Source: an uncultured virus (IMG/VR IMGVR_UViG_3300038428_000489)
Lineage: Duplodnaviria > Heunggongvirae > Uroviricota > Caudoviricetes
Virus record (IMG/VR): IMGVR_UViG_3300038428_000489
DNA: 20,000 bases
Direction: 5' to 3' (one strand)
The notes under the pieces were generated by a model. It ran no database searches. It saw nothing but the letters and a program-made list of their open reading frames with translations, and was not told where the DNA came from. Of the stretch, positions 4,156 to 20,000 are shown one piece after another (positions within the stretch are counted from its first letter, which is position 1; each line of letters opens with the position of its first letter). Made by a program: the position numbers and the translations under genes.

Positions 4156-7100
4156 TTATAAACCCAAGAACTGATACCTATCCGTTTTCTTTCGAGTCTT
4201 TCCCGGCTGTCCAACCTTCTCCAAGTTCTTCTCAATGTCGGCGCTGATCGCCTCGTTGACCTCATCCATTCCGGGCGTTTCCGTGGCCGGTCTTAGAATC
4301 CCCAGGCCGGTAAGGTCCTGGCCCGCCAGCGGCTCCTCCGGCATCTGCATATCCTGAATGGTGTCGGCCACCTTATCCATATCCAACTCTCTCAAGAGGG
4401 GAACCAGGGCGTCCCGGTTACGGATAAGCATTTCCGGCTTGGCATTGGCGATCTTCCTCTGCATCAGGGGTGTCCATTGCTGGCGCTCATAGTCTGATGC
4501 CTGTTCCATAGTCCGCGCCATCCATTCAAGCGGAAGCCTATAAAATCGAGCTTGCCCCGCGGGGACTTGGCTCTCTTCCACGATCTCCTTGACCTGCTGG
4601 CGCGTCAATTTCCCCTCACTCACCGCCTGTGTGGCTGCTTCTTCAAATCCCTCGCTATCTTCATCCCGTGCCATCTTTGTCAAATCGCCCCGGAGCTTTT
4701 TGGTCTCTGCCGATTCCTTAGTAGTAGTGGAGGCCCGCATTAACTGTTTATATTCGTCGATGACATTCTGCGCCGGGGTATTGGCGATTTCACGGGGGAC
4801 TGGTCTTACTCCAAATAGACTCAAAGCCGCTCTCTCCGGTCCTTGCTTTGCTCCTTTCTGATAGCTTTGCAGAATAAAGGGCGATGCCTGCTTGGTCATA
4901 TATTTCAGGACACCCCAAGCTTGCTGGCTGTAAGGATCGTAATGGTCGGCGATCTGGTTGCCCCAATAATCCTTATTCTCAATAAGATCGCTGATGATAT
5001 GGATAAAAGTCGCTTCCTTGGCCGTCACGGTGCGGAAGGGATGTTTCCATAACCCCATGGCGTCCTTTAGGTAAGAAGGAAGCTGCAACCGTTCCTCGGC
5101 ACCGTTGGGCATAGTCTCGCCAGTAGCCGGGTAGAAATAATCCTTGAGCTGTTCCGGTTTCTTTCCGGTGAAGGCCCAGTGCATAAGCCCACCCATCATT
5201 CCCACAGAAAAGAGTAAGCCTGTAGCATATTGCAACGCAAGACGATCCTGCATCTTTAAATCTCTGACGGGTTCTCCCCGGGCGAAATCCACCGCTTTCA
5301 TCAAAACATCCTTGGCTCCGGCAAAGCTGCGGGAAGCCAGTTTGGCACTCCCGATGTTGAACCGGGGGAACTGAATGATGGCTCCGAAAAGGCTTTTGAC
5401 CGTGGCGTTCATAGCCACATTGTCCTTGGCTACCTCCCCCCAGACATTATCGGCGTGCTCGCGGACCTCATAGGCTATCCGGGCTTCTTCCTCGGGGGTG
5501 GCGGGGCGCCCCTGCGTTCTCTGAAACCGTTCCACTTCCTTGTTAAATTCCAGATAGATTTGCCCGTTTTTGCCCTGGGGCACCACATAATCCATCAGAC
5601 CAGCAGAGGCGGTTTTCAGTAAATGGCCCGTAGCCTGTAAGGGATGAAGAGGCCCTGCTTCCCAGACATCTTGAAGATGCCCGGCTAGAATCTTTTTCAA
5701 ATTGGTTTCTGCTGCTGGCCGAGTTCCGCCACCTACCAGAATCTTGGCTATTTCCAAGACATGAGCGTCAGCCTTCTCAGGATTCATCAGGGCGCGGTCG
5801 AACTTCAAACCTTGTCTCATGTAGATAGGTAGTGCTGCGGGCGCAGTAACCAACTGGCCAAGTCCGCCAGCCACCCTCGGCAAATCTCCGTGGAACAGCC
5901 CTCCGACGGTATCCGATAGACCAGCCCATGACTGGCTGGCCATAGAATTGATGCCTTCAAAGAAGAAATGCCAGCCGGATAGGGCCATCTGCATATGCCT
6001 GATACCATAGAGGCTCCTAGTATAAAGCTGGTAGGCATCGCTGCCTTCCAACCCCCGGCCCACGAAATTTTCCACTTGGCGCACCACTTCATCGGGGCCG
6101 ACTCGGTATCCGACTCGCATCCAGCCTTTGAGTGCCGGGATTTCCTCATAACCCATGCGTTCTCCGCCAGGAATAATACCGCCTTTTTTTGCCCCAGGGA
6201 TTGTTATTTGTCGGTCTGACCCCCCCAAAGGTAAAGTTTCTTCATCTGCACGTTCTGGGATCGCTTGCACAGCCCGACGCTCCACCTTTTTCCAAACCTC
6301 CCCATAGGAACCGGGAAACTGGCGATAGCCTTCCGGCATTCTGTCCAGGCTCTTTACTACCTCTACTTTTCCCGCATTTTTCAAATCAGCGATGATTCTC
6401 TGGCTGCCGATAAAGGCTTCATGGGCGGCCCGGCCTGCCATAACCGATTGCGCCAAGGTCGGGAACCTCGGCTCTAATCCGGCTTCAATCCCTGCCGGGA
6501 TGCTGACCACGGTTCTCAGGTTACGGAAATATTGAGGCCCTTCCAAGGAGCGGGTCCGCCCCTCAAAGATAGCTTTTTTAAGTGCCTCCAATTTCTCACT
6601 CGGTTTCCATAGATGATCCATATAATTGGAGAGATCGTTCATGCTGATGCCGAGTTCATGGATGGCAGCCACTTGACGGCGCTCTTCCGGTTTGTAGCTA
6701 TCGGCAAAGGCTTTCAAAGTGGGGTCTTTGACTTGATCCGCCTTGCCGCTTTCATAAAGGCGGAGAAAATCAAGCACCCGGGGGTCATCGAAGCGGGTAT
6801 CTTTATCGAAATCCGCAAAACTCCGGTTCATACGGGTAACTTCGGCTTGGACCTCGGCAGTCCGCCCCGCAATAATCTGGTGGGTCCACCTGCCCTCTTC
6901 GGTGCGGCGGGCCGGGTAGAAAAGACGGCTCAGGGTATCTTTAACTCCCGTGTAGTGAGCGTGAGCCGCTTCTACATTTCCTTTCACGGCACCGGTGATA
7001 CCGCCCACTATCTGCCAGGGGCGTTCTCCTTCCACGCCTTCATCTTCCCGCACCCGGTATCTGGTCGGCGCCAAGGCCTCGGGTAACTCCTTCCCCCGGG

Positions 7101-10100
7101 GTTCACGGCCAAACATCTCTCCGCTCCGAGCCTTGGTGAAAATATCGTCCACATTCTCGTACCCGGTAATGGCCCTAATGATGCGGGTAAAGAAGTCTTT
7201 GATTTTCTGGAAGATAGTGTCGGGAGCAACCTTGGGGTCCCATTCCTGGTAGGCTTTGGCACGAAGCTCTTCATTGTCGCCGTATTTCTCGGTGACTTTC
7301 GCCAGTTCAGCGGGGGTCAGAAAATACTGTTCAACGTGGTGCCAGAGCTCGTGGTCCAGGGTTCGAGGCCCTTCACCCCGTGCGATTTCAATGAAACCCC
7401 CGAGGTTAAAAGACAACGACGTGTACGCCCCGCGAATAGTTCTTCCTTCAGGATCAATGCCTAAGGCGGCATAATCCGGGCCTATGGTCTCACCTAATCC
7501 GAGTTTAAGAGAACCATCTTTAGCTTCCCGGATGAGAACCATCTGGCCGCTTTTCTCTCGGATGACCCAGCCGCGGTTATCATCTGGCCCAATCTCCCCA
7601 GGAGCCATTTCTGTCACAGTGCCGTTCTTGCCAAAGCGTTTTTGGATGATATCAGTGGTCAGACCGCGGGAAAGAGAGGCTTCCTGTTCAGGGGCAAGGC
7701 TGAACTTTGTGGGTTCGGCGGGGGTTATCTCAGAGGGCGAAAGTTTTGCAGGTTGGGGGCGTTGGCCTCTATCAACTGCGCCAGCTTGGGGTTCTTTTTC
7801 CACAATGCCGACATAGCCGCTTTGACCAGGGAAGAATCTGGCTCGATCTTGCGAAAGGGCGTTTTTAATGGCTCGGTAGGCTTCATTTTTGACGGCTCCT
7901 TTGTTTGCCGACCCCGCCAATGCCTCAGCATATTGATTGAGGGTTTTGCTTGTCTCGCTATCTGCAAGATAAGCGAATTTGTCCACTAATGCAAGGGCAT
8001 TGGCTGATTCTTTGGAAATTAATTTATTGGTTTCAGGGTCTAAAACATTCCCAGCTTCCCTCAGTCTCGTGGTTTTCTTGGAAACTAAGGTAAATAAACC
8101 CCGATCCTGTAAAAGTGATTTGCGGGCATGGCTAAGAATTTCTGCCTTTTCTAAAATTAAGGTATTTACTAGTTCCTGTTCTCCGAATAAATCTTTTTGC
8201 ATACCGGGGACTCTCGGAGCATTAACCGAAAGGCGAATAATCTCCCTAAGTTTATCATTGCCTATTACTTTGCCTTTGCCCTCCCAATCCGATAAAAGTT
8301 TATAAATACCTTCTTGCGCCGAAGGATCACCACCAAGTTCCCGGCCAATAGTCACGGCCTTATCCACGGGGAAACGACCGATGCTGACCTGATGGAAAAT
8401 CGGGTCAATCACCTGAGATAAGGCAACCGCTCTGTCTGTTTTAGCTTCACTCAGAGAAAGTCCCTCATTGGCTAAATCTTCGGGGGTCAACTTCGTATCC
8501 CGCATGAATTTAGCCATGTCCATTTCAGTGCCTCGGCCCTCGGCAATATTGATTTTGGCTCCATAGGCCCTGGCTTCCTGGGCAGACCATTGGGCTGAAT
8601 CAAGAATCTGCGCCCGAACATCTTTAACACCAAGCCTTTTAGCCAAGGCCAAGCGCTGATGACCGTTCACCACGAATTGTTCACCATCGGGGGATTTCCA
8701 TAGAGTGACGACACCGCCAAGTCCCTCATCCCATTTCTTCACATCTTTAAGGGCTAAGCCTGCGCCCGTTTCAGACTCGTAGCCTTGCTTGAATTGAAAA
8801 GTCTCAGGAGCAACCTTAATTTCTTGAACAGGAACACGCTCAATAGCTATCCCCTCCCCCCCAGCTTCCGGGGCGGGTTTCGGGGCGAGACCGAAGGCGG
8901 CGCCTACCCCACCTTCCGGGACTTTCGGGGCGAGGTCGGGAAATCTCTTTAAAAGGGAATCAGATACTTTCTCTCCTCGTGCAAGTTTAGCCTCTGTCAG
9001 TCTTCTTAATTTTGCATCTGGCTCTTTCTCTGGACCTTGCTGTTCCTCTTTAAAAAATCCTGCTTCCTTCCTCAATGCTTCTTCTTTTGAAGTTTTAGGC
9101 GTTGCCCTTTGTTCATCGTAATTTCCTGTTAAAGTATAATTTAATTGTTTCCGTCTGTTGGTAATTTCTTTTAATGCTTCTTCCTTTGTGTTAAAAGTTT
9201 CATCGCTTCTTTTTAATCCATCTTCATTGAATACTCTTAAACTCCATAGATTTTTGTTTTTATATTTATTAAATTCATTCTTTAATTCATAAGTATATTT
9301 TGGTAAAGAGCCACTTTCATAGGCATTTATCCAATCAACAGCATCTGAGCGGTCTCCGTACATTGACTTTTTGATACCAAGGCTTTCATTGGCAACCAAA
9401 ATACCATCTGTTACTTTGTCAATTTCCCATCCCGGAGGAGCCTTTTCCCCCTCCCCCTTCCCAGCTTCCGGGGCTTTCGGGGCGAGGTCAGTCTTGGCTT
9501 CCGGGGGCGGATTTTTGGGAAATATTATTTTACGCGCTTGGTCAACACCACTAAGTTGTCTCGCAATGCTGTCGGCTTCAACAAATTGGTTTGTTCCAAC
9601 AACAGGTCTATCCCCGAAAAATTCTACATTAATTCCATACTTAGGAATTTCAGTAGATTTGTCATGGACAATAAGGGTCAATATGGGCTTGTGGTTTTGG
9701 TCTGCAAGCTTCTGCGCTTGCTTTAATTGCTCCTGACTTATTTCTCCGCTACGTTGCAACTTAAAGGGTTTATCTTCTTTGGTTCCATGAACACGACGCG
9801 GCATTGGTTCTCCTTTTTCTGCCCATGCCGTTACTGTTTTTTCAAGTTCTTTTTCAAAGGTGGTTTCTAACTCATCAGGGAAAACTTGATAGAATCTATT
9901 TCTATCTCGCTTTAATTCTCCCCACGGCTCTTTCGCCGGGGCTGCGGCCTCACCAGACGGCGCAGGAGGCACGGTAGAGGACGGAGCAATGGTAGGGGCA
10001 GGGGTAGTCCCTGCCTTAGGCATCGGCTGATCCGGTAGTCCCGGTTCGGGAGCGGGTGGCATCTTCTCTGTCGGTTCACCTCCCGCCGGGGTCGGTGAAA

Positions 10101-11865
10101 TTCCCACGTTGCCGGGACCTCCCGCCTGGGCCGGGGCGAAAGAAGGAGGTTCCTCGGCAGCAGGCGCGGCAAATCGAGGACCTGTCGGGGGTTCTTCTTT
10201 GGGAAGGCTCTCGGGAATCTCGTTTTGACGGCCAGCGGGATTTACTGGGGGCAGACCCTTGGAAACTAACCCCGGCTCCGGGGCAGGTACAGCAGGGGAA
10301 GGGGACACCTCGCTTGGAAAAGCAGCCGCCCCGGAGGTCGGCCTGATTCCTTCTCTCCCCATGGGTTGAGCAATGCCCGCGGTTATTTTTTCCCCAGCCT
10401 CTTTCAATGCCTGATCCGCCAAGAACTTTTCATGGGCATTACGCTGAGTCGGATCTACTGCAATAGCTGCCTGGACTTCATCGGGACGGGCCGGTTTGCC
10501 ATCCGGGCCAAGAATTTGTCCCGGTCCATGTGCAGCCTCTCCAATGACCGCACCCTTCCCGCCCCGGTAGTAGCTCGCAACATTGACTTGGGCTTCTTGG
10601 TGGGCGGCTTGAAGATCCAGGGTAAGGCTCTTTTGCCACTCATCCAGAGCTTTGGCTCTATTTGCCTCAGCGGTACTTTTAGCTATACGATCTCGGGCCA
10701 AGCCAATCTCGCTGTGGATACCGGAAATAGCCGTCCCCAGAATAAGGCTCTCAAGGACTCCCTGAGTCACCTGGCGGTCGGGATTGTAGCCGAACTTCTC
10801 GAAGGCGTTCTCAATGATATTGAATCCCGCCATGGCCCCGCCGCCCATGGTAGCATTAACCGCTCTCTGGGCAATGGCTTGGCCTGCCTTCCCTTCAAAA
10901 ATCTTGGCAATGGCCGTAGAAGCCTTAATACCTTCCGGGCCTACTAGTTTGCCCAGCACCTTACCGGGAAGAACAGCGCCAGCGGTCCCGGCTCCCAGAC
11001 CGATCATAATTTTTTCTACTGTCGGAATTTCCTTATTATGCTCCTTCTCCCAGGCCATCATGCGCTGGCCGGCATCACTGATACCGATGAGGGCACCGCC
11101 GATCTCACCTCCAATCGCCCCGGCAGCGGCGGCAGTAACCCCCAGAGCCGGGGCAACCACCTCGCCTCCGAGGGCCAGGATAGCAATGGGTAGAAGCTGG
11201 ACGGCCAGGCTGGGCATGGATGAGGCCCACCACTTGGGATTGACCAGCAGAGAAGGATGCTCAGTTATCCCACCGGACACCGAAGGAGAAGGAGCATATT
11301 CACGCTCTAATTTCTCCCCGGTCTCGGCCAGACCTTCACCGGCCTTCATCCCGAAAGCCCCCATGATGGACCGGGGCATCGTCAAGACCCCGCCTAATCC
11401 CCGGGCAAGGCTGGCTCCGATTTCATCGAGGAAACCCCCAACTCCGGTACGCTCCCCTGGCGGCCCTGCCGGTGCAACAGCACGGGTCGGAGCAAGGGCC
11501 TCGGGTAACTGACCTGGAGGTGGACTCGCTGGTGCGGCAAGAGGCGGTTCAGGTACGGCAGTAGGTCTCGGAGCCAAAGTAGGAGGCAATTCAGTCGGTG
11601 CCCCGCCTGTGCCTCCCGGCGGTTTGGCTACTTCTGATACAGGAGTCTTTGGTGCCAGTTCGGGAGTAGCCGGTTTCAGCCCAATCTTCCCCATAAAATC
11701 GGGGAAGGTGTCAGGCGGTTTTGCAAGTTCCGCCGGAGGTTGCCCTGCATATCCTCCTGGCCATTTGGGGGTGGGCAGACCTGTGGGTTCAGGGGCTTGA
11801 GGTGTCGGCGCAGCGCTGACCTTCAATCCGATACTACCCATGAAGTTGTCAAAATCATCGGCCAT
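4156..11865 (-). CDS. Large polyvalent / internal virion (ejection) protein, 2569 aa
   Basis: Pro-rich disordered N-terminus; Gly/Ala-zipper hydrophobic region; ParB-like domain (VVNGHQRL); HELWH metallopeptidase followed by IFQKIKDFFTRI; long helical C-terminal region with a hydrophobic segment (YATGLLFSVGMMGGLMHWAF). AAGGGA RBS. Confidence 0.88.
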   Translation of the reverse strand: MADDFDNFMGSIGLKVSAAPTPQAPEPTGLPTPKWPGGYAGQPPAELAKPPDTFPDFMGKIGLKPATPELAPKTPVSEVAKPPGGTGGAPTELPPTLAPRPTAVPEPPLAAPASPPPGQLPEALAPTRAVAPAGPPGERTGVGGFLDEIGASLARGLGGVLTMPRSIMGAFGMKAGEGLAETGEKLEREYAPSPSVSGGITEHPSLLVNPKWWASSMPSLAVQLLPIAILALGGEVVAPALGVTAAAAGAIGGEIGGALIGISDAGQRMMAWEKEHNKEIPTVEKIMIGLGAGTAGAVLPGKVLGKLVGPEGIKASTAIAKIFEGKAGQAIAQRAVNATMGGGAMAGFNIIENAFEKFGYNPDRQVTQGVLESLILGTAISGIHSEIGLARDRIAKSTAEANRAKALDEWQKSLTLDLQAAHQEAQVNVASYYRGGKGAVIGEAAHGPGQILGPDGKPARPDEVQAAIAVDPTQRNAHEKFLADQALKEAGEKITAGIAQPMGREGIRPTSGAAAFPSEVSPSPAVPAPEPGLVSKGLPPVNPAGRQNEIPESLPKEEPPTGPRFAAPAAEEPPSFAPAQAGGPGNVGISPTPAGGEPTEKMPPAPEPGLPDQPMPKAGTTPAPTIAPSSTVPPAPSGEAAAPAKEPWGELKRDRNRFYQVFPDELETTFEKELEKTVTAWAEKGEPMPRRVHGTKEDKPFKLQRSGEISQEQLKQAQKLADQNHKPILTLIVHDKSTEIPKYGINVEFFGDRPVVGTNQFVEADSIARQLSGVDQARKIIFPKNPPPEAKTDLAPKAPEAGKGEGEKAPPGWEIDKVTDGILVANESLGIKKSMYGDRSDAVDWINAYESGSLPKYTYELKNEFNKYKNKNLWSLRVFNEDGLKRSDETFNTKEEALKEITNRRKQLNYTLTGNYDEQRATPKTSKEEALRKEAGFFKEEQQGPEKEPDAKLRRLTEAKLARGEKVSDSLLKRFPDLAPKVPEGGVGAAFGLAPKPAPEAGGEGIAIERVPVQEIKVAPETFQFKQGYESETGAGLALKDVKKWDEGLGGVVTLWKSPDGEQFVVNGHQRLALAKRLGVKDVRAQILDSAQWSAQEARAYGAKINIAEGRGTEMDMAKFMRDTKLTPEDLANEGLSLSEAKTDRAVALSQVIDPIFHQVSIGRFPVDKAVTIGRELGGDPSAQEGIYKLLSDWEGKGKVIGNDKLREIIRLSVNAPRVPGMQKDLFGEQELVNTLILEKAEILSHARKSLLQDRGLFTLVSKKTTRLREAGNVLDPETNKLISKESANALALVDKFAYLADSETSKTLNQYAEALAGSANKGAVKNEAYRAIKNALSQDRARFFPGQSGYVGIVEKEPQAGAVDRGQRPQPAKLSPSEITPAEPTKFSLAPEQEASLSRGLTTDIIQKRFGKNGTVTEMAPGEIGPDDNRGWVIREKSGQMVLIREAKDGSLKLGLGETIGPDYAALGIDPEGRTIRGAYTSLSFNLGGFIEIARGEGPRTLDHELWHHVEQYFLTPAELAKVTEKYGDNEELRAKAYQEWDPKVAPDTIFQKIKDFFTRIIRAITGYENVDDIFTKARSGEMFGREPRGKELPEALAPTRYRVREDEGVEGERPWQIVGGITGAVKGNVEAAHAHYTGVKDTLSRLFYPARRTEEGRWTHQIIAGRTAEVQAEVTRMNRSFADFDKDTRFDDPRVLDFLRLYESGKADQVKDPTLKAFADSYKPEERRQVAAIHELGISMNDLSNYMDHLWKPSEKLEALKKAIFEGRTRSLEGPQYFRNLRTVVSIPAGIEAGLEPRFPTLAQSVMAGRAAHEAFIGSQRIIADLKNAGKVEVVKSLDRMPEGYRQFPGSYGEVWKKVERRAVQAIPERADEETLPLGGSDRQITIPGAKKGGIIPGGERMGYEEIPALKGWMRVGYRVGPDEVVRQVENFVGRGLEGSDAYQLYTRSLYGIRHMQMALSGWHFFFEGINSMASQSWAGLSDTVGGLFHGDLPRVAGGLGQLVTAPAALPIYMRQGLKFDRALMNPEKADAHVLEIAKILVGGGTRPAAETNLKKILAGHLQDVWEAGPLHPLQATGHLLKTASAGLMDYVVPQGKNGQIYLEFNKEVERFQRTQGRPATPEEEARIAYEVREHADNVWGEVAKDNVAMNATVKSLFGAIIQFPRFNIGSAKLASRSFAGAKDVLMKAVDFARGEPVRDLKMQDRLALQYATGLLFSVGMMGGLMHWAFTGKKPEQLKDYFYPATGETMPNGAEERLQLPSYLKDAMGLWKHPFRTVTAKEATFIHIISDLIENKDYWGNQIADHYDPYSQQAWGVLKYMTKQASPFILQSYQKGAKQGPERAALSLFGVRPVPREIANTPAQNVIDEYKQLMRASTTTKESAETKKLRGDLTKMARDEDSEGFEEAATQAVSEGKLTRQQVKEIVEESQVPAGQARFYRLPLEWMARTMEQASDYERQQWTPLMQRKIANAKPEMLIRNRDALVPLLRELDMDKVADTIQDMQMPEEPLAGQDLTGLGILRPATETPGMDEVNEAISADIEKNLEKVGQPGKTRKKTDRYQFLGL
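7100..7650 (-). other. Zincin-like metallopeptidase domain within the 2569-aa protein (approximate bounds)
   Basis: IRGAY...FIEIA...RTLDHELWHHVE (HExxH at 7339-7353), downstream EELRA as possible third ligand, then the FQKIKDFF helix typical of this domain in polyvalent proteins. Confidence 0.8.
7860..8850 (-). other. ParB/Srx-like domain plus helical extension within the 2569-aa protein (approximate bounds)
   Basis: VPVQEIKV...FQFK...VVTLWKSPDGEQFVVNGHQRLALAKRLGVKDVRAQIL...NIAEG; NGHQR at 8653-8667 matches the ParB-N GH-x-R motif. Confidence 0.8.
8860..9489. repeat. GC-rich intragenic direct repeats: 25 bp at 8913-8937 and 9465-9489 (24/25 identical), plus a split third copy at 8860-8889
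   Basis: cttccgggactttcggggcgaggtc versus cttccggggctttcggggcgaggtc; cccagcttccggggc at both 8860-8874 and 9460-9474. They encode DLAPK(A/V)PE and LAPKPAPEAG linkers. Confidence 0.9.
10714..11210 (-). other. Gly/Ala-zipper hydrophobic, membrane-inserting region of the 2569-aa protein
   Basis: LAVQLLPIAILALGGEVVAPALGVTAAAAGAIGGEIGGALIG, IMIGLGAGTAGAVL, ATMGGGAMAGF and LILGTAISG, with repeated GxxxG motifs. Confidence 0.7.
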
Positions 11866-11874
11866 GATATTCCC

Positions 11875-12945
11875 TTACGGGCCAAAGACGCCATATTTCG
11901 GCTGAGGTTGTTGAAAAAGCGGTGTTTCTGATTTAACTTCTGAACCACCGCCAAATCCAGGAACTCCCGTAGGCACTGAAGCTGGAACGAAAGGCGCAAA
12001 CGCGCCGCCCATTGGGCCAGCCTCAGTAGGCGCCGCTTCCCACCAGTGCGATTTAGGCGGCGGAGGCGGTGCCGACCTGACCTGCGCAAGCAACCGCGCC
12101 CAATGTTCCGGGTTTGCCTGGCCTGTATTCAGCCAAGTTTCAATGTCGGCATCCGGGCGTAACGGCTGGGTTAGAAGCCATTTGCGAACTTCTTGCCGCT
12201 CTGCGAATAGCTTTTTAGCAGCTTCAAACCCCTGAGTTCCGGCGACACTTCTCGCCGCCATCTGATCACGAGCCATTCCTTCATCTTTGGGCATAAAGCC
12301 CAACTTTCCACTCTTTGGGTCAAAAGTAGTGTAAGGACTTTCGTTATGAAGCCAGGTATCGAAAGCCTTGCCTTGCTCTTCTGCCTGCTGTTTCGGCAAT
12401 GCGGCCCTTGCCTGCTCCGTGGCAAATTCTTTTGCAGGATCTCGGTTATAAGCCGCCATAGCTTCCACATGAGCTTTAGCCTCAATTTGTGCCTTCTCAA
12501 GTTCGGTTGAACGGAGCATCCCTGCCCTTGTGGTCTCACCCGCTTCCCGCGCCATCCCCTCATGCCATCTTTGAACTGCTTCTGGATAATCCTCACCACG
12601 GCCCTCACTTGTGAATACCTGGGAAGATGGATGGCCTGTGCCCCTGATTTCCTCAATCCCGAGATTGTCTTTACCCAAAACCATGCTTCCACCTGGGGAT
12701 GTTCTAAAAGGGGTAAATTCAGGTTTGCCTCCGGGCGTAGCCTCGGCCAGATTTGCTCCTGGTGCTGTTATAACACCCGCAGACGGTGGACCGGCACCTC
12801 CGACGCGGAATGGCCCGGCACCCCTAGCTTCGGTCCTTGGTTCCACAAATGGACTACCACGACCTGCCTCGCGAGCCGCAGCCGCATCTTCTGCGGCAAA
12901 TGTTTTTTTGTCCCAAGGCATAACAGCAATTTGGAATTCAGCCAT
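11875..12945 (-). CDS. Probable internal virion/ejection protein (low-complexity, A/G/P/E-rich, central helical part)
   Basis: AGGAGG RBS within the end of the upstream gene. Composition and position directly before the giant protein; function is inferred. Confidence 0.6.
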   Translation of the reverse strand: MAEFQIAVMPWDKKTFAAEDAAAAREAGRGSPFVEPRTEARGAGPFRVGGAGPPSAGVITAPGANLAEATPGGKPEFTPFRTSPGGSMVLGKDNLGIEEIRGTGHPSSQVFTSEGRGEDYPEAVQRWHEGMAREAGETTRAGMLRSTELEKAQIEAKAHVEAMAAYNRDPAKEFATEQARAALPKQQAEEQGKAFDTWLHNESPYTTFDPKSGKLGFMPKDEGMARDQMAARSVAGTQGFEAAKKLFAERQEVRKWLLTQPLRPDADIETWLNTGQANPEHWARLLAQVRSAPPPPPKSHWWEAAPTEAGPMGGAFAPFVPASVPTGVPGFGGGSEVKSETPLFQQPQPKYGVFGP

Positions 12946-12948
12946 GAT

Positions 12949-13986
12949 TTATCCTCCTGCTGGATTATCCAGCTCGTAAAAACTAATCGGGACTATTTGC
13001 CATGTATCCCCAAAAGCCTTCATGTCATCATCGCTCCAAAGCTGGCTGGTTTTGGTCGTGGTCACATCCTTCAGAATGGTCACCCGATCCCCAACTTGAT
13101 AAGTGGCAAAATCGCTGGGAGTCGCGGTCACTATACCATCAGAGTTCGCATCGGTTACCCGCCATTTGACCTTGTAAGTCGGATAAGGCGTATCCACAGT
13201 CGGATCGATAACCTCGGTGACCACCCCGCTGGTGTAAAACACGGTGTCCATCCAATGGCCAGCATACATGAAAGGTGAAGATAGCTGCGATTGCGTCCCC
13301 CAACAGACATCCGGCATCATTCTGACCCCCAGGGCCAGGAGTTCCCCGGGCACCGGCCATTTAGGCGGATTCCCCGACGCATCGCTCGCGGGCATATTGA
13401 TCCTGAACCACCAATGGGGTTTGGTGGGTGCGGGCTGCCCATTTAGATTCTTTGCCAAAATTTGTGCAGGCACTCCGGTCACATTCTGTTGCGTAACTTG
13501 ATCAAAATTGGCCGCGACCAACGAGGTAAGATTCAATAAAATCTTGTCCTTGTCCGGCCACTGGAAGAAGGTCTCCGGCACTGGCGCCACCACCTTGTCG
13601 TCCCCAGGAACGGCCGTCACCTTATCCGGCGTGGTTGAGTATTGTCCAATAGCCATCAACATCTCTACAGCCGGGACTCCCTTATCTTCAATCGGGAACC
13701 CTGCCAAAAAATCTATGAAGCCGCTTACCGGCTGCTGATTAACAAACACCGCCTCCTGATAGTGAAAGTCCGCACCATAGATAGGAAACTCGAACCGGGC
13801 CAAAAAGAGTCGGTCAGTCCCCGCCAGGGTCTGAAACGGATTGATCTGTAAATTCTTTACCATGTCCTGCAACGAATCCCCGGCTTGGTCGGCAATATCG
13901 TCCATCCCCTCATCCGAGTCCATGATCCACCAAGTAGGACCAAGATCCTCTCTATAAGGTAAAAAATCTTCGGGGTCCCAGGGCAT
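12949..13986 (-). CDS. Hypothetical structural protein, acidic and Trp-rich, with possible C-terminal OB-fold
   Basis: Starts 1 nt after the upstream stop. C-terminus SGVVTEVID...TYKVKWR...IVTATPSD...YQVGDRVTILK follows an OB-barrel strand pattern. Confidence 0.7.
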   Translation of the reverse strand: MPWDPEDFLPYREDLGPTWWIMDSDEGMDDIADQAGDSLQDMVKNLQINPFQTLAGTDRLFLARFEFPIYGADFHYQEAVFVNQQPVSGFIDFLAGFPIEDKGVPAVEMLMAIGQYSTTPDKVTAVPGDDKVVAPVPETFFQWPDKDKILLNLTSLVAANFDQVTQQNVTGVPAQILAKNLNGQPAPTKPHWWFRINMPASDASGNPPKWPVPGELLALGVRMMPDVCWGTQSQLSSPFMYAGHWMDTVFYTSGVVTEVIDPTVDTPYPTYKVKWRVTDANSDGIVTATPSDFATYQVGDRVTILKDVTTTKTSQLWSDDDMKAFGDTWQIVPISFYELDNPAGG

Positions 13987-13987
13987 C

Positions 13988-15526
13988 TTAGCTGATAAAC
14001 TCCGTTTCGTTCAAAGTAGTGTAATCCCATCTCGTCATTCCTGCATAAGTAGCTATTCTTGCAGCCTCAAGCAATTCCTTCGCCCAAGTTTCCTTGTCCT
14101 GCTCACCCTGAAAGTAATATAGGTTTTCATCCATCATCCGCTCTTTGGCGGCCACCAGGGTTCCCTGTAAAGTCGCCTCTTCCCCAAGTTCGATCTGAGT
14201 CTGAGTGTCCTTGTAGGTGAAGGCGGTCTGCTCATTATCCATCGCGGTATTTCGTAGATCCTCCGCCGTCTCTCCATCGGTCAAAAGCTGAGGAAGTATC
14301 TTAGCTATTGCCTGCTCCGCTGCCAGCTTGAGATTTTCTATTAGGGTGTCGGTATCGTATTGCTGAATCATGTCGTCCAGCTTGGATTGGAGAAACCCGA
14401 ACCCGGCCTGGATCTCCTGGGTGCCAATGTCCAGCTTTATAGCTTCCAGTTGAATCATCAGCACCTTGACAAAAAGCTCGGCTACCTGGGCCTGCAATTC
14501 TGCTTTCTGAGCGGTGGTCATTGCTATTTCCACCTGGGCTTCTTCGGCCTTTACCTCAGTCTCGCCTGCCTCCACCCCGGCCATGGCGGCCCGCACCGCC
14601 GCCTTTAAAGCCTCCAAATTAATCTTGACAATCTCGGTAACTATAAACTGCTGATTGATGGACTCTTTGACAATATTGGCCTGAACCTCTTGCAGGTGCA
14701 CCGCCTCCTGGTTAATGGCCAGGGTGGTTTTCTCCACCTCCACCTCAGCCTCACCTGCAGCTACCTCCGCTTCAGCGGCCCGGAACATCGCCTTCTGCGC
14801 TTTCAGCACAATCTTAGCAATGTCGGTTTGCAAAAACGCCTGATTGATGCTCTCTTTGATAATGTCGTCTTGCACCGCCTCAAGACGCAACTCCTCTTTG
14901 GCGATGGCCAGGTCTGCTTCTTCAACCTTGACCTCGGCCTCCCCCGCGCCTACCTGGGCCTCGGCGGCTTTTACGATGGCCTCTTGCGCCACTATCTGGT
15001 TTTTGGCGATATCTGTCGCCACAAACTGCTGGGCGATTCCTTCTTCGATAATCTTATCTTCGACATCTTGCAGGTGCAGGGCCTCTTTAGCGATAAATAG
15101 GGTTACTTCCGATGCCTCCACCGCCAACATCTTGAGTTCCACCGCCGCCGCGAACTCCTGGGTCCCCATAAGCAGCGAGCGCACTTTGGCGCTGTAAAAA
15201 TCCGCGGTCAGCACATAATCGTTAGTCGCTTGCTCGATGGCCAGCTTCACTAGCCCGGTTTCCACTTTCATATCGGCAATCAAGCGTTCTTGATTCACCA
15301 CCGCCTGATCTACCTCGTTGCTCCGCTTGACCTGGTACTCCTTAACCCGCCAGTTCTCATCAGCAATAGCCATGGGATTGGCCACCCCCGCCCGTCCCAG
15401 GTCATTGAGCACCTTCTGTTCAGCCGCCAGAGGGCACAGAAGTCCACCCCACTCGAAGGAAACCCACAGGGTCCTATTGCGCTCCCAGGTACGCTCTCTC
15501 AATTCTCTTTTAGCGATAGTTTCCAT
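13988..15526 (-). CDS. Long acidic coiled-coil virion protein B (512 aa) with 3 x 63-aa repeats
   Basis: A/E/Q/K-rich heptad pattern, almost no Pro; AAGGCGG upstream of the start. Confidence 0.8.
   Translation of the reverse strand: METIAKRELRERTWERNRTLWVSFEWGGLLCPLAAEQKVLNDLGRAGVANPMAIADENWRVKEYQVKRSNEVDQAVVNQERLIADMKVETGLVKLAIEQATNDYVLTADFYSAKVRSLLMGTQEFAAAVELKMLAVEASEVTLFIAKEALHLQDVEDKIIEEGIAQQFVATDIAKNQIVAQEAIVKAAEAQVGAGEAEVKVEEADLAIAKEELRLEAVQDDIIKESINQAFLQTDIAKIVLKAQKAMFRAAEAEVAAGEAEVEVEKTTLAINQEAVHLQEVQANIVKESINQQFIVTEIVKINLEALKAAVRAAMAGVEAGETEVKAEEAQVEIAMTTAQKAELQAQVAELFVKVLMIQLEAIKLDIGTQEIQAGFGFLQSKLDDMIQQYDTDTLIENLKLAAEQAIAKILPQLLTDGETAEDLRNTAMDNEQTAFTYKDTQTQIELGEEATLQGTLVAAKERMMDENLYYFQGEQDKETWAKELLEAARIATYAGMTRWDYTTLNETEFIS
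14534..15100 (-). repeat. Three tandem 189-bp (63-aa) repeats in protein B
   Basis: Units start at 15100, 14911 and 14722: LFIAKEALHLQDVEDKIIEEGIAQQF / LAIAKEELRLEAVQDDIIKESINQAF / LAINQEAVHLQEVQANIVKESINQQF; each contains AGE(A/T)EV near its end. Confidence 0.92.
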
Positions 15527-15534
15527 AACCGCCT

Positions 15535-17142
15535 TTATGCCACGACAAAAGACCCGGCTTGAATTGTCTTTTCCACCAGAGATGTTGTCTCACGGTTAAA
15601 GCGCTGGACGACACTGGCCGCTATTTGAGCAGCCTCACTTTGAGCCCGAGCCTGCAAATTGGTTAGCAAAGAAGTCAGTTTCTCGGTGAGCAGGGTCCGG
15701 TCATAGTTCTCTAGACCCACTTCATTGTTCACCCTGATGGTTTCCCGGGCCAGAGGCGTCTGAAGTCCATATAGAACTTCTTCTTCATCCAGGGTCAGCT
15801 TTTTCGCAAGGAGTTCCGCCTGGATCTGGTTTCGGTACGCCGCCAGAGTTTCTTCGTTTTGAGTTCGGATCAGCCGGTTCGCTTCCTCCGCTGTGACAAG
15901 ATTTGCGTCAACCAGCTTCTTATTTTCCTCCGCCACCCGCAGCAGGTGATCTACATATTCTTTGACGACTTCCACTTCCAGCCGACCGTATCCCAGGTTC
16001 ACCAGGGCTGTCTGAATAGGCAGGTTAGCGGTCTCCGCCGCCGCCAACTGCAATTCCGCATCGGCCTTCTGGATATAGTAAGGCACCATGGCCAACTTGA
16101 TCGCCACCAGGGCCTGGTCCGCGGTCAAGAGGTTTTGCAGAGCCATAACCTTTGCCTGGTCCGCAGCTACCTCAACCTTCTCGGCGGCGATTTCCGCATC
16201 AATCGCCGGAATCTCCTGCAGCTTCATTTCCGCGGTTTGCAGCCCCGCCGCCACCAGGACGCTTTCGTAAGGCACAGTCGCTTCCTGGTCTGTGACCAAA
16301 ACCCGCTGCGCCGCCAGTTTGGCTTGATCTGCCGCCAGCTTATCGTAATCCGCGGCAATCTCCACCTTCTCAGCGGCGATCTCCTGGTTGATGGGCGGGA
16401 TTTCCTGGAGCCGCATTACCGCGGTGGCCAACTGCGCCAGGAGCAAAGCCTGTTCATAGGGCAAGACGCCTTGCTGCACCGCCACCAGATTGCGCTCCGC
16501 CACCAGCAGGTCTTGCAAAGCCGCCACCTTAGCCTGATCGGCAACCAGCTCTACCTTCTGGGCCGCGATGATCTGCCAGATGGAGGCGATGATCTGCAAC
16601 TTCATCTCGGCGGTCTGAAGCTGGGCCGCCAGCAGGGCCGCCTCATAAGGCAGGTCGTTGGTCTGGGCCTGCACCAACTGCGCTTTGAGGGCGGCGATCT
16701 GGGCCTGTGCTGTGGCCTTGTCCCGGATGATGGCCACCATGCGCAGCTCGGTATCGGAGTCGAGCCGTTTGACATCCGCCTGCCCCTTGCGAAAAGCCGC
16801 CTGTACCTGGGTCTGCTCAATTTCCAGGGCATCGAAAATCTCAACACGATAGAGTTCCATGGCCAGGGTCATTACCCGGACCAGAATCTTTAAGGCAAAA
16901 TCGTACTCGGAGAAGATGATGGCTCGGCGGTCATCGTAAATCTTGCCGTTCACCAGGACCAGTTTATCCTTGGCTTCCTGGCCGGCTTGCAGGATGGCGT
17001 CCAGGTTCTCCCCGGGGGGTTCACAGAAGCCCCTGGCAGCGCCATCGGCCAAGGCCTTGTCCACTGTGACCAGGAGCCGGGCGTTCTCTTGCTCGACACC
17101 CTGGGTCCATTCCGCCGATTCTCGTTCATTGAAGGAGGTCAT
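15535..17142 (-). CDS. Long coiled-coil virion protein A (535 aa) with 3 x 63-aa repeats
   Basis: A/L/Q/E-rich heptads; N-terminal AARGFCEPPG motif; ATGA overlap with the upstream gene. Confidence 0.8.
   Translation of the reverse strand: MTSFNERESAEWTQGVEQENARLLVTVDKALADGAARGFCEPPGENLDAILQAGQEAKDKLVLVNGKIYDDRRAIIFSEYDFALKILVRVMTLAMELYRVEIFDALEIEQTQVQAAFRKGQADVKRLDSDTELRMVAIIRDKATAQAQIAALKAQLVQAQTNDLPYEAALLAAQLQTAEMKLQIIASIWQIIAAQKVELVADQAKVAALQDLLVAERNLVAVQQGVLPYEQALLLAQLATAVMRLQEIPPINQEIAAEKVEIAADYDKLAADQAKLAAQRVLVTDQEATVPYESVLVAAGLQTAEMKLQEIPAIDAEIAAEKVEVAADQAKVMALQNLLTADQALVAIKLAMVPYYIQKADAELQLAAAETANLPIQTALVNLGYGRLEVEVVKEYVDHLLRVAEENKKLVDANLVTAEEANRLIRTQNEETLAAYRNQIQAELLAKKLTLDEEEVLYGLQTPLARETIRVNNEVGLENYDRTLLTEKLTSLLTNLQARAQSEAAQIAASVVQRFNRETTSLVEKTIQAGSFVVA
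16087..16653 (-). repeat. Three tandem 189-bp (63-aa) repeats in protein A
   Basis: Units start at 16653, 16464 and 16275 (partial fourth VPY at 16086): LPYEAALLAAQLQTAEMKLQ / LPYEQALLLAQLATAVMRLQ / VPYESVLVAAGLQTAEMKLQ; each contains IAA(Q/E)KVE. Confidence 0.92.
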
Positions 17143-17888
17143 TTACAAATCCGCCTTAAATATCGGAATTTCGATAACACATCAGCCGGTTTGGGTAAAT
17201 TTTTGCTATAATATTTTAACATTGATAATATTTTTTCCGCACAGACGAGTTCTATCGCAATCCCTTCCGGGCTATCAATCGCTATCGGAGGTGGCTTTAC
17301 TGGAAATCCGTAAATTTTGGCAAGGATGGCGGCAAGAATTGGCGAAACCGTCCCGGTAACCTGGGGAAACCCCTCAAAATCGGCGCTTTCCTGGGCAAGA
17401 GCAGCGGCCATGGTGCCGGACAAATAAGGGAAGGACCAAGGATTTAAAGCACTCTCATATTCCTCGCCGGTCCCGCTAGCATATGTTACGAAGTTATCGA
17501 AGGTGTTGCTGGTTATGGTGTCCGTATAAAGCCCGCAAGCCGTCCCCGATCTGACCCCGGCATCGCTGATGGTGCCGCTTCCGACATAGGCGTTGTTGTA
17601 AAACAGATAATAGGATGTGCCGATGGACCGGACCACGATGGTTGCCCCAGCCGAATAAGTTGCAGCCGCCGTGCCCGGGGCTACCGCATTCACCTGGGCG
17701 ATGGCAGGCAATGTCAAAACTCCACCAGAGACATTCGAGCCGCTCAGGGAGGGCAGAGTGAAAGTGGCCAACAGAGTGCCGGTAGCGTAAGCGCCGGAGT
17801 AAATCTTGAGGGTTCCGCCGCTCAAATCCGTCGCCAGGGTGGTACCCAGCGAGGTCCGTTCAACGGTGTCGAGAATGAATGATGGCAT
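17139..17888 (-). CDS. Hypothetical structural (tail/fibre-associated) protein, possibly chimeric
   Basis: AAGGAG RBS. G/T/S/A-rich beta N-terminus GGTLKIYSG...LLATFTLP...GGVLTL...GTA resembles small phage structural proteins; middle YYLFYNNAYVGS...CGLY...TFDNF resembles the end of a ConA-like sandwich. Confidence 0.7.
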   Translation of the reverse strand: MPSFILDTVERTSLGTTLATDLSGGTLKIYSGAYATGTLLATFTLPSLSGSNVSGGVLTLPAIAQVNAVAPGTAAATYSAGATIVVRSIGTSYYLFYNNAYVGSGTISDAGVRSGTACGLYTDTITSNTFDNFVTYASGTGEEYESALNPWSFPYLSGTMAAALAQESADFEGFPQVTGTVSPILAAILAKIYGFPVKPPPIAIDSPEGIAIELVCAEKILSMLKYYSKNLPKPADVLSKFRYLRRICK

Positions 17889-17911: not shown

Positions 17912-20000
17912 TTAATCTGCCTTTGTTTCCTCTGATTTCAGCCACGCTTCAGCCGCCGACAACAACGCGTTCGCTTCCCCTCCCACCCAGGCCCCGGCCA
18001 GAGAGATCAGCGAGGGAGGCGCCGTGGGGCCCGCCCCCGTGATAATGGTTAAAATCACATCATCCGGCGTAGTCGTGAACACAGCCACCGCGGTAGCCAG
18101 GCGGAGCAGGAATCCTATTTCTGCTGAAGAAGTGGTGCTCAGGACCGGGATGTCGGTCACCAGCTTCCGCAGGATTGCAAGCATCACTCCAGGACTCACC
18201 GTCCCCACAGACACAGCCGTCTGTAAAGCTCGCAGAATTTGGAGACCGACGGCAGAGGTCTGGCTCTGCGCGGCGACAGTGGTTATTAGTTTTCGCAGGA
18301 CGGCCAGATTGATGGCCGGAGTCTCGGTCTGGCAATCCACCGTGGAGACAAGCTCCCGGAGAACTGCCAGCATGATATTTGGAGTCGAGGTCGTGACGCC
18401 ACACGCAGTAGCCAGCTTTCGCAATACCGCCAAGTTAATGGCTGAAGTCGAGGACAGCACCGCGACATCCGTAGCCAAGTTGCGGGTAGCCTGAAGATCC
18501 AGGTAAACGGTATCCGAGGTTTCGCTGATGACCGCGGCAATCTCCGCCAGGGCTCTTTGGACGGCCAGGTTAGGGGTGCTCACCGAGGAAACCACCGCGG
18601 GCGATGTCACCAGTTTACGCAGTACCGCCAGCATTACGCTATCAGGCGTGGAAGATTGCACCGCAGGAGAACAAGCCAGTTTCCGCAAAATATTCAGCAA
18701 AGGCGAGCTTGTGGAGGTGGTCACCGCGGGCGATGAAGCCAGTTTGCGGAGGATAGCCAACATAGGGCTGCTCACCGTGCTGACCACTGCAGGGGAGGTA
18801 GCCAGTTTGCGGAGGACCGCCAGCATGGGCGACGAAGTGGTGGAGACCACGGCCGGTGTAGTGTGAAGATTTCGAGTGACAGGTCCATAAGTTTGTCCCC
18901 GAATCAGGTCTATATCACTATCAGAAAGCAGGGCATTGGCCGCTACCCATTCATCCAAAAAACCCACAGTAGTATAATAATTAGAGCCTATATCCCCAAA
19001 ACCTAAATAAAAAATACCCGCTCCTAATGGAACGGACGCTATACTGGTGCTATAATCGCTAACGCTGCCAGTTGCTTTATTAAAAACCCGCACAACAAGC
19101 GTTTGAGCATTCGCATCAATAACAAAAGCCACATGATAAGTGTTAAGCAACGAAAGAATAAAGCCCGTATCATAGTTAGTGCTTCCGCTAATAGAAACTA
19201 TCAAATGCCCATTATTATCCAGATAGGCACCAATCCCATTAGTTAAAGTAGAAACCTTGCCCCATATCCATCGAGGGTGTGATGAATCAGGCGCCCAAGC
19301 GATAGGGATGATCCAGCCGCAAATGGTAATTTCTTTAACCGAATCGGTGCTTTTAAAAGGAAAGTTGGTTGAAAGGTTTGCATCGGTTATTTGGAAATAA
19401 CTTCCAGCGGTAGCCAGATATGCCGCGTCTGCTCCTTCTAAGACGCCAAAAGGATCAGAAACCGGATTGGCAGTTCCAGCCAAACTGAGAGTATTCGCAC
19501 CATTCCCACCAGCGGCGGGGCTGGAATCCGTGGTCAAGGCCCCGGTTTCAAACCGCCATCTCCCCTGAATATTGGCATTGTAAGTAAATACATTGCCGGG
19601 GGACGGGATGCTATATGCTCCTGTATAAGCTCCATTAATAATGGCTCCAACTTCTTCCATAATTAAAAGTCGATTAAATACTACCAGTTCATCAATATCG
19701 CCGTCCCAATAGTTACCATCGTTGTCTGTTCCATAGATACCTGAATTTCCTACCTGCCAATCGGCGGTGCAAACCCCAAGGGCTGAACCTGGCGTAGTAA
19801 TATAATATGAAGTAGCACCTGTTGACGCATTATATAAGTAAAGACGGAATACTTTATTAACTCCATCCAGCATAATGGTAAGATGATACCAGACCCCAGT
19901 TGATATTGTGAGGAGGGGGTTTATTGTTGTAGCAGTACTGCCACCATTTCCCCAGGTTATTAGCAATGCTCCCGAATTAATCTCGACATCAAGGCATTTT
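17912..20000 (-). CDS. Tandem LamG/concanavalin A-like fibre or adhesin with C-terminal repeat stalk, 5'-truncated
   Basis: Frame is open to the window end (KCLDVEINSGALLITWG...). LamG motifs GVWYHLTI...WDGDIDELVVFNRLL, then a second copy GRWRFE...ITICGWI...YHVAFVID...GFLDEWVAANALLS. Confidence 0.88.
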   Translation of the reverse strand, partial: KCLDVEINSGALLITWGNGGSTATTINPLLTISTGVWYHLTIMLDGVNKVFRLYLYNASTGATSYYITTPGSALGVCTADWQVGNSGIYGTDNDGNYWDGDIDELVVFNRLLIMEEVGAIINGAYTGAYSIPSPGNVFTYNANIQGRWRFETGALTTDSSPAAGGNGANTLSLAGTANPVSDPFGVLEGADAAYLATAGSYFQITDANLSTNFPFKSTDSVKEITICGWIIPIAWAPDSSHPRWIWGKVSTLTNGIGAYLDNNGHLIVSISGSTNYDTGFILSLLNTYHVAFVIDANAQTLVVRVFNKATGSVSDYSTSIASVPLGAGIFYLGFGDIGSNYYTTVGFLDEWVAANALLSDSDIDLIRGQTYGPVTRNLHTTPAVVSTTSSPMLAVLRKLATSPAVVSTVSSPMLAILRKLASSPAVTTSTSSPLLNILRKLACSPAVQSSTPDSVMLAVLRKLVTSPAVVSSVSTPNLAVQRALAEIAAVISETSDTVYLDLQATRNLATDVAVLSSTSAINLAVLRKLATACGVTTSTPNIMLAVLRELVSTVDCQTETPAINLAVLRKLITTVAAQSQTSAVGLQILRALQTAVSVGTVSPGVMLAILRKLVTDIPVLSTTSSAEIGFLLRLATAVAVFTTTPDDVILTIITGAGPTAPPSLISLAGAWVGGEANALLSAAEAWLKSEETKAD
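18044..18874 (-). repeat. 13 tandem ~21-aa (63-bp) repeats, consensus RKLATSPAVVSTTSSPMLAVL
   Basis: Eleven units of 21 aa, one of 22 and one of 24 (277 aa = 831 bp, counted by hand). Confidence 0.93.

Follow-up and report, generated by a model that had tools for sequence, protein, structure and literature searches.

The DNA that we analysed (hereafter, the window) is a 20,000-nt stretch from an uncultured virus of the Caudoviricetes (IMG/VR record IMGVR_UViG_3300038428_000489), and the genes with which we are concerned lie along its minus strand:

17139..17888, minus strand: a 249-aa gene upstream of A, with a weak match to phrog_3758 (virion structural; E 0.003); its product is a probable fibre part
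15535-17142, minus strand: gene A, 535 aa, predicted tail-tube subunit 1
13988-15526, minus strand: gene B, 512 aa, net charge -42, predicted tail-tube subunit 2
12949..13986, minus strand: gene C, 345 aa, acidic, directly after B in relatives and in the virus MetMV; it may encode a tube tip or plug
11875..12945, minus strand: gene D, 356 aa, Gly/Ala/Pro-rich, by position and composition a candidate small ejection protein
4156..11865, minus strand: gene E, 2569 aa, hydrophobic in stretches at ~220-305, likely a giant ejection protein

An earlier, sequence-only reading of this DNA had pointed to 63-aa repeats in both A and B, and self-alignment confirms them: 63 is the top period in each protein, with ungapped scores (325 for A and 345 for B) far above the maxima reached in 30 shuffles per protein (56 and 53). 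The repeats are placed as follows:

16018..16719, minus strand: A residues 142-375, the 63-aa periodic span, comprising one ancestral and two added units
16087-16653, minus strand: A residues 164-352, the block of three units as first delimited
14426..15121, minus strand: B residues 136-367, the 63-aa periodic span
14534-15100, minus strand: B residues 143-331, the block as first delimited

In the phases of the two blocks, the three units are 54-60% identical in protein A and 52-57% identical in protein B, with DNA identities among units of 59-65% in either gene; Tandem Repeats Finder missed both sets. The statement that the repeats of A and B do not resemble each other also stands, in that the two proteins cannot be aligned (BLASTP E 7.9), their profiles are related at hhalign probabilities of only 0.2% and 0.8%, and these direct comparisons gave no proof of paralogy. 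Two points require amendment. Three units are indeed present in each protein, but relatives have one 63-aa unit each (A of ~405 aa, B of ~388 aa), so the expansion in the window amounts to two extra units (+126 aa) in A and the same in B. Likewise, the 63-aa period would suit coiled-coil heptads, but the hydrophobic peaks of A and B lie at 7/3 and 7 rather than at 3.5, and the heptads are not of the canonical a/d type. Four runs contained no joints or variants of the stretch; in two of the four, which may be where it came from, it lies on a single contig.

If A and B co-assemble in register, as had been proposed, their lengths should change together among relatives. Three such matched events were found: The +126 in A and +126 in B of the window are seen directly on one DNA, and two others come from pairs that were inferred because both members share a database and an equal longest-contig value, namely P0058/P0222 (+105/+105, both 3 x 35; ENA, value 9565) and P0003/P0046 (-44/-43; NCBI, value 8400), the DNA of neither pair having been seen. 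The rough chance of a coincident value is 0.75% per inferred pair, which affects two of the three events. Neither gene was expanded in a further 17 pairs from one contig each, nor in 6 inferred pairs, and a permutation over 28 pairs, both mismatches (see below) included, gave 2/500,000 (r = 0.965). The modules that are lost lie distally, with approximate limits in the window:

15730..15861, minus strand: A residues ~428-471, a 44-aa module deleted in P0003, P0005 and L010
14153..14281, minus strand: B residues ~416-458, a 43-aa module deleted in P0045-P0047

Because these deletions begin at residues ~302-311 of A and ~289-294 of B, the two proteins would run in parallel register with an offset of 1-3 heptads; an antiparallel arrangement does not fit.

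The correspondence has exceptions. In L069/L071, which represent one lineage, A has no indel and B on the same contig has gained 36 residues near residue 300, an insert that includes Gly and Pro and may be looped out. P0005 (A, -35 and -44) and P0047 (B, -43) share one run and would form a second, doubtful mismatch if both came from one genome. Searches for partners found none for the 583-aa A represented by P0012/P0057 (+168 = 4 x 42) and none for the expanded B proteins P0071, P0152, P0141 and P0130. Indels in A and B co-vary, with sizes that agree to within one residue, in three events, but L069/L071 and the unpaired expansions depart from the rule that A and B must stay equal. Fixed steps of ~9 nm, the other element of the original proposal, have to be abandoned, since units of 35, 42, 43-44 and 63 residues occur across relatives. 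It could be argued from the mismatched and unpaired variants, and from the restriction of possible indel sizes to heptad multiples, that A and B are independent structures whose equal repeats are coincidental; given that three events, each different in size and place, agree to one residue or better, we consider such a coincidence extremely improbable.

An indication of what A and B might build comes from the beginning of A:

16921..17124, minus strand: A residues 7-74, a helix, an RGFxxPPG turn and a second helix, homologous to a nozzle-dock domain

This domain is known from the tail-tube family of Pseudomonas phage A1002 gp37 (Kochitakasuvirus; 44NX/26LA), which includes longer F116-like, AP1, Y11 and Y7 relatives (phrog_10969); the gp37 tube is described as a 12-mer of two alternating conformers (PMC13730344). 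Residues 7-74 of A matched the gp37-like hairpin at an hhalign probability of 93-95% (E 6e-8 to 3e-7), with a score of 60.5 against at most 22.4 in controls, and in a single-sequence alignment they correspond to residues 118-185 of KPP25 gp04, a protein that matches the A1002 tail tube in the PDB (26LA/44NX). For B, residues 104-214 matched the channel helix of the same family at 91% (hhalign). Global alignments of A and B to the channel part of single-gene tubes scored 39.7 and 38.4, whereas reversed or shuffled profiles scored at most 11.4 and 7.0. Moreover, when an HMM of 7 single-gene tubes was applied to 1082 ORFs from 35 sequences, 65 of them A or B, the top 46 ORFs were all A/B and the first other ORF had an E of 1; the same ranking contained no further tube homologue or single-gene copy in these loci. 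Judged from such comparisons, A and B are remotely homologous to the family of alpha-helical tail tubes that are encoded by single genes. Longer members of that family have the same periodicity profile (2.24, 2.33, 2.25) and the same two-seam wheel, and the Y11 and Y7 tubes are lengthened by 42-aa repeats. Against gp37 itself B gave nothing (6.8% by hhalign), and B is therefore linked only through the longer, F116-like tubes, among them P0149, which was itself found with the B profile. The outer fibre-dock domain of gp37 is absent from both proteins, residue 10 of A aligning with gp04 118.

Searches of general databases were less informative. Neither Pfam nor PHROGs assigned A, B or C to a real family, tblastn of the window's A and B against named phages gave nothing, profile searches of the PDB returned nothing or only noise (44NX was not among the matches of the A profile at E up to 1), and the ESM Atlas returned only unnamed viral clusters. 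Scans of viral contigs with window A, P0127 and A10 yielded no relatives, and with P0012 only L003. At E up to 0.001, Foldseek found nothing for the single-chain models of A or B in the PDB, nor for the A model in BFVD, a method for which long lone helices are uninformative.

Controls showed that the 7/3 hydrophobic period is no proof of a wide barrel: It is present in the trimeric P22 needle gp26, weak in the gp37 channel, and absent from phiX174 H and from the barrel of the P22 portal. That gp26 has the same peak, and that a hetero-bundle would also need chains of matched length, can be cited for A and B forming a solid axial needle or plug in the nozzle (e.g., a three-plus-three bundle), as do P22 gp26 or phi24B gp56. 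We regard this as very unlikely, in that A and B are homologous to a tube protein, the A7 and A6 profiles had no significant match to gp26 in a 22-protein set (E 0.8 and 0.23), and gp26 is a homotrimer with a single a/d core, whereas A and B have two seams, the second being B's most hydrophobic stripe (+3.0, vs. +0.6 in gp26). In the same 22-protein set a small remote-B profile, A5, scored gp26 at E 5e-4, which we read as coiled-coil noise.

AlphaFold models of the relative L007 are in keeping with a tube built from both proteins. Its A is modelled as a nozzle-dock hairpin (helices at 6-36 and from 44 onward), a very long two-seam helix and a short beta-rich C-terminal tail, and its B as a short N-terminal helix (3-20), a turn (21-30), a very long two-seam helix and a beta-rich C-terminal tail; B has no RGF motif, and only the global alignment spans its hairpin region. 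The long helices extend over residues 44-385 of A and 31-370 of B, i.e., 342 vs. 340 residues. For A and B together, complex prediction, which had been suggested as a check on their co-assembly, gave an ipSAE of 0.41 (best of three controls, 0.00), with at least 59% contact agreement between runs and a partner pLDDT of at least 64. In a benchmark, 116 of 157 solved complexes attained the same mark, as did 2 of 215 mismatches; among these, however, scores of 0.60 or less included only 18 of the 157 solved complexes and yet both mismatches; the prediction, although well above its controls, falls in this range and weakly suggests direct contact between A and B.

The surroundings of the two genes bear on where such a structure would reside. 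Relatives carry genes for an Hc3 nozzle and an SU10-type adaptor upstream, those of the window lying beyond its ends, and among 13 window proteins and 22 neighbours we found no tube or sheath family, but instead podovirus nozzle and adaptor families. Methanosarcina virus MetMV (MK170447), whose host was predicted in silico only, as described in PMC7164591, encodes true homologues of A and B in the same A-B-C-D-giant order (AZF89924 and AZF89925, 401 and 386 aa; HMM E 3e-27 for A, and 9e-6 with the near profile or 2e-51 with the remote profile for B), which are annotated as hypothetical and, unlike the window pair, are unexpanded. On the strength of these nozzle and adaptor genes and of the MetMV gene block, the virus is classed as a podovirus. 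The 249-aa ORF was not significantly similar to the KPP25 fibre gp07 (E 0.42), and a 695-aa LamG ORF in the window has weak PHROG matches to minor tail and tail terminator proteins.

Since A and B are all-helical and acidic and lie directly upstream of D and the giant E, they could alternatively be ejection proteins, carried internally, which after adsorption refold into a conduit across the envelope, as T7 gp15/gp16 or DEV gp72/gp73 do; DEV gp72 is described as a helical tube with a 25-A lumen (PMC11445570). Several features make this unlikely. A has the nozzle-dock hairpin of an external tube that is present in mature virions; D and E occupy the ejection roles by position, in loci that have no other tube homologue; and hydrophobic 19-mers (KD19 above 1.3) are absent from the window's A and B, as from its C and D, whereas E has four (family-mean peaks are 1.31 for A and 0.8 for B). 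The E proteins of relatives begin with ddrB-ParB, helicase or N4-vRNAP-like segments.

We therefore consider it probable that A and B together build the alpha-helical wall of a single external podovirus tail tube, alternating in register and matched in length, and such a tube to be likelier than an ejected conduit, a needle or a ruler. The sequence-only reading had left the choice open among a two-chain ruler, a needle and an envelope-spanning tube; its premise of length-matched co-assembly is retained, and remote homology points more narrowly to an external tail tube docked to the nozzle. We further infer an A6B6 stoichiometry, an external location on the virion, and lengths in nm. The tube would hang from the hexameric nozzle, docked by A's N-terminal hairpin together with B's shorter one, and the long helices of A and B would stand parallel, side by side and in register, in a 12-helix wall, most simply of six A and six B staves in alternation, the two-gene counterpart of the two conformers of A1002 gp37. 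Each helix would present two hydrophobic seams, one to each neighbour. Its lumen would pass DNA and the ejection proteins D and E, and C may cap its tip. If tube length equals helix length, with upper bounds of ~50 nm in most relatives and ~69 nm for the window pair, a tape measure would be unnecessary, and an indel in one gene would be viable only with an equal change at the same level in the other.

A different arrangement of the same parts would be concentric, one protein lining the channel and the other forming an outer sleeve that replaces the missing outer wall of gp37, still at matched length. The A1002 tube is described as double-layered (PMC13730344), A and B have no outer fibre-dock domain, the distal modules differ by one residue (44 vs. 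43), and the outward positions of A are small and weakly polar. Yet each protein aligns over its whole length with the channel part of single-gene tubes, B's two outward positions are strongly charged, and the central expansions are identical to the residue (126/126 and 105/105), such that we hold concentric layers to be rather unlikely.

Alternation of A and B in a single wall, the arrangement that we prefer, would be a two-gene, length-matched counterpart of known single-gene tubes. Common to A and the gp37 family is the hairpin with its RGFxxPPG turn, and common to both A and B and that family are the long channel helix, the Hc3-type nozzle and the podovirus context, as well as, in its longer members, variation in length by heptad-multiple repeats. 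In contrast, gp37 is a homo-12-mer from one gene that has the N-terminal fibre-dock (outer wall) domain, whereas each A/B locus has two mutually non-alignable, family-related genes, with paired indels in some lineages, and their helices (~340-470 residues, vs. ~150 in gp37) are 2-3 times longer. The tail tubes of N4, DEV, Moo19 and B2, compared here by description only, are likewise single-layer, 12-fold, alpha-helical podovirus tail extensions, but are homo-oligomers of one gene product (PMC13730344). The tunnels of T7 (gp15:gp16-N) and DEV (gp72:gp73) resemble A and B in being helical, two-protein and of DNA width, but they are packaged within the capsid and refold during ejection, they comprise a pore-forming protein, and they have no nozzle-dock hairpin; the portions of the reports available mention no paired length changes (PMC8954989, PMC11445570). 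Similarly, literature searches, mostly at the level of listings, found no two-gene heteromeric helical tail tube and no paired length changes.

A tape-measure protein acts from inside as the ruler of a tube of stacked rings. Tandem repeats in such proteins alter tail length, as described in PMC13585406; with A and B, by contrast, the proteins of the wall would themselves set the length, and two genes would have to agree. We see evenly balanced prospects for the broader claim that, in a widespread uncultured podovirus lineage, in which MetMV may be an archaeal virus, a tail of 50-70 nm is an A6B6 heterododecameric barrel built from gene-split conformers and retuned by exactly matched duplications with no tape measure, among the longest natural heteromeric helical barrels. 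If correct, this would assign a role to two unannotated protein families that occur in dozens of environmental phages as well as in MetMV, show that long tails can be reached without a tape measure, provide a clear case of two genes forced into length co-evolution, and make available to structural work a heteromeric helical nanotube of natural origin whose length can be programmed. It would also make tail length predictable from sequence at ~0.148 nm per residue; applied to gp37, this rule gives 22 nm, and 24 nm is reported.

Two adjacent genes of the window, A (15535-17142, minus strand, 535 aa) and B (13988-15526, minus strand, 512 aa), probably encode an external heteromeric tail tube. The sequence-only reading described neighboring ORFs that carry repeats of the same 63-aa period in otherwise unlike sequences, and each element of that description held: both ORFs are present in the window translation, 63 is the top self-alignment diagonal in A and in B (far above 30 shuffles), and the two proteins give no alignment to each other. 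Self-alignment places the repeat units at 52-60% identity; in DNA they have diverged so far (only ~60% alike) that they are unlikely to stem from an assembly artefact. The DNA over A and B is unbroken and variant-free in four sequencing runs, two of which span the stretch in one contig and may be the source of the window.

Relative to L007, an unexpanded reference pair, A and B are each longer by 126 aa; within the family, 33 of 43 A-like proteins have 403-408 aa and most B-like proteins 384-398 aa. The expectation that copy numbers would change together in homologous pairs was borne out. Nineteen distinct pairs share a contig: the window (+126/+126, seen directly on one contig), 17 unexpanded pairs, including that of the Methanosarcina virus MetMV, and L069/L071, with +36 in B alone, an insert that may form a loop leaving the wall. 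This count omits near-duplicates and re-fetches (L008, L009, L018, L029, L040-L044, L053, L062, L068, L072, L077, L080, L081), as well as loci in which A or B is truncated, split or absent. Indels at the C-terminal tip, and those shorter than ~20 residues, counted as zero, as did the B of L079, judged by its total length. Eight further pairs were inferred from an identical longest-contig value and source: P0058/P0222, with three additional 35-aa units in each protein, P0003/P0046 (-44/-43), and six unexpanded in both genes. P0005/P0047, from one run (-79/-43), was scored as a mismatch. Across 28 pairs, only 2 of 500,000 permutations matched equally well (r = 0.965, both mismatches included). 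The repeats are real and the length changes co-vary.

Because the zero-indel pairs are related sequences, the weight of this co-variation comes from three events (+126/+126, the +105-type 3 x 35, and -44/-43), which are unlike in unit size and place. Staves of equal length would explain the paired indels. Since A and B lie 1.6 kb apart and have unrelated repeat units, a paired change must arise by two mutations, one in each gene. The distal deletion falls at a matching distance from the N-terminus in A and in B, which favors a parallel register of their helices. Other expanded members are unpaired: an A of 583 aa (4 x 42 extra), a B with 43-aa repeats that reaches 538 aa, and three remote B proteins (506, 487 and 480 aa). 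At the other extreme, two B homologues of 228 aa (P0127/P0227) lack ~160 central residues and an unnamed viral A-like cluster in the ESM Atlas has 231 aa (score 0.91); these could possibly form a short-tube pair, and a viral-contig scan found no locus encoding the P0127-type B.

In AlphaFold models, the L007 proteins are nearly all helix (A: 6-36, 44-245, 251-385; B: 3-20, 31-191, 199-370, with a low-confidence middle), and the long-helix spans are 342 vs. 340 residues. Both proteins are acidic, have a final 25 residues enriched in beta-forming residues (likewise in single-gene tubes), and show two hydrophobic seams per heptad. Two seams per helix are expected in coiled coils with one neighbor on either side. 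The hydrophobic period was rejected as proof of a barrel, control proteins showing that the period alone is insufficient. A hydrophobicity scan found no membrane-like segment in A or B, and four in E, the likely giant ejection protein (2569 aa).

Helical podovirus tail tubes are already known (A1002, N4-like). The A profile matches KPP25 gp04 (E 1e-4 in a set of 22 proteins; hhalign 34.5%), which itself matches full-length the A1002 single-gene tube gp37 (PDB 26LA/44NX). In hhalign, the probability of a match is 93-95% for A 7-74 to the tube hairpin and 91% for B 104-214 to the tube channel, each above reversed and shuffled controls, as are global alignments of both proteins to single-gene tubes. 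The tube profile was built from 7 of 10 homologues, the other three having a turn motif not matched by the pattern. In a reverse search of 1082 ORFs with the tube HMM, of which one member (P0149) originated from a B-based search, the top 46 matches were all A or B ORFs. By these profile comparisons, A and B are remote homologues of single-gene tubes.

PMC13730344 describes gp37 as a 12-copy tube 240 Å high, with a helical, acidic, 12-fold channel and a nozzle-dock hairpin (residues 106-186) whose two conformations alternate and pair in a pseudo-six-fold manner. A and B would work similarly; however, they lack the outer-wall domain and occupy two genes in place of one, and both differences set them apart from gp37-type members. 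Two family-related genes sit where relatives hold one, and in the solved relative two kinds of conformer alternate on a nozzle of six-fold symmetry. An A6B6 wall would be the simplest model, with, from geometry, a helix-axis radius near 19 Å. Tube length would be residues x ~0.148 nm, a rule that gives 22 nm for gp37 (24 reported) and, as upper bounds, ~50 nm for typical A/B pairs and ~69 nm for the window. Speculatively, a longer tail could aid the crossing of a thick surface layer.

That A and B co-assemble, as the sequence-only reading supposed, was also examined by complex prediction. With alignments, the L007 pair scored 0.41 (runs 0.41, 0.46, 0.37; contact agreement at least 59%, partner pLDDT at least 64) vs. 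0.00 for the best of three controls. Among 157 solved complexes, 116 attained the mark, against 2 of 215 mismatches; with a score no higher than 0.60, only 18 of the 157 attained it, as did both of these mismatches. The output contained no interface, and a remote solved relative exists; the prediction lends weak support to direct A-B contact.

Single-gene tubes extend 174, 251, 372-383 or 548 residues past the turn, and because the longest hold 42-aa repeats, this family already alters its length by repeat gain. Those of phages Y11 and Y7 (L048 1643-4348 and L050 1595-4276) have 548 residues and 42-aa repeats, predicting unusually long tails. In the literature searched, mostly at record level, no paper turned up on a two-gene heteromeric helical tube whose subunits change length in pairs; related work is in PMC8954989, PMC11445570, bioRxiv 10.64898/2026.04.10.717836 and bioRxiv 10.64898/2026.07.03.736327. 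The record of the Y11 homologue names it a Rho exchange factor; F116 p57 (L036 13835-15649) matches phrog_10969 over residues 1-274 only and the rest looks out of frame, which suggests a frameshift; and KPP25 gp03 (L037 26839-28011), adjoining the tail-tube gene, bears the label 'photosystem II D1', a doubtful name for a gene in the tail module of a Pseudomonas phage.

The order A, B, C, D, giant E is conserved in the long loci examined. Other genes separate A and B in L010 (1053-3372, 2.3 kb) and L012 (1436-7216, 5.8 kb), so adjacency is dispensable; on L033, a contig of a Desulfarculales genome, gene A (51-1273) is split over two overlapping ORFs with an intact B behind. Genes for an Hc3 nozzle (phrog_8040) and for an adaptor of the SU10 type (Pfam PF24175) lie upstream in relatives, which makes these phages podoviruses. 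Named relatives of the nozzle are MetMV, KPP25 and F116, and in MetMV the homologues of A (401 aa), B (386 aa) and C follow the usual order; its Methanosarcina host is an in-silico prediction only (PMC7164591). For the window phage, a CHAP-like ORF below the Pfam cut-off hints at a bacterial host.

Two further window ORFs are:
17912-20000, minus strand: LamG-domain ORF, its C-terminal half a string of ~21-22-residue repeats in translation
1398-2768, minus strand: 456-aa ORF, with only a weak unrelated Pfam match

By analogy with A1002 gp39, the first may serve as a rope-like string to which fibre dimers dock; the second resembles ATP-grasp proteins by eye. Among relatives, giant E exchanges cargo, i.e., Strawberry-notch helicase, ddrB-ParB and methylase-like pieces (L005 14543-21202, L018 12334-19008, L019 14477-21082).
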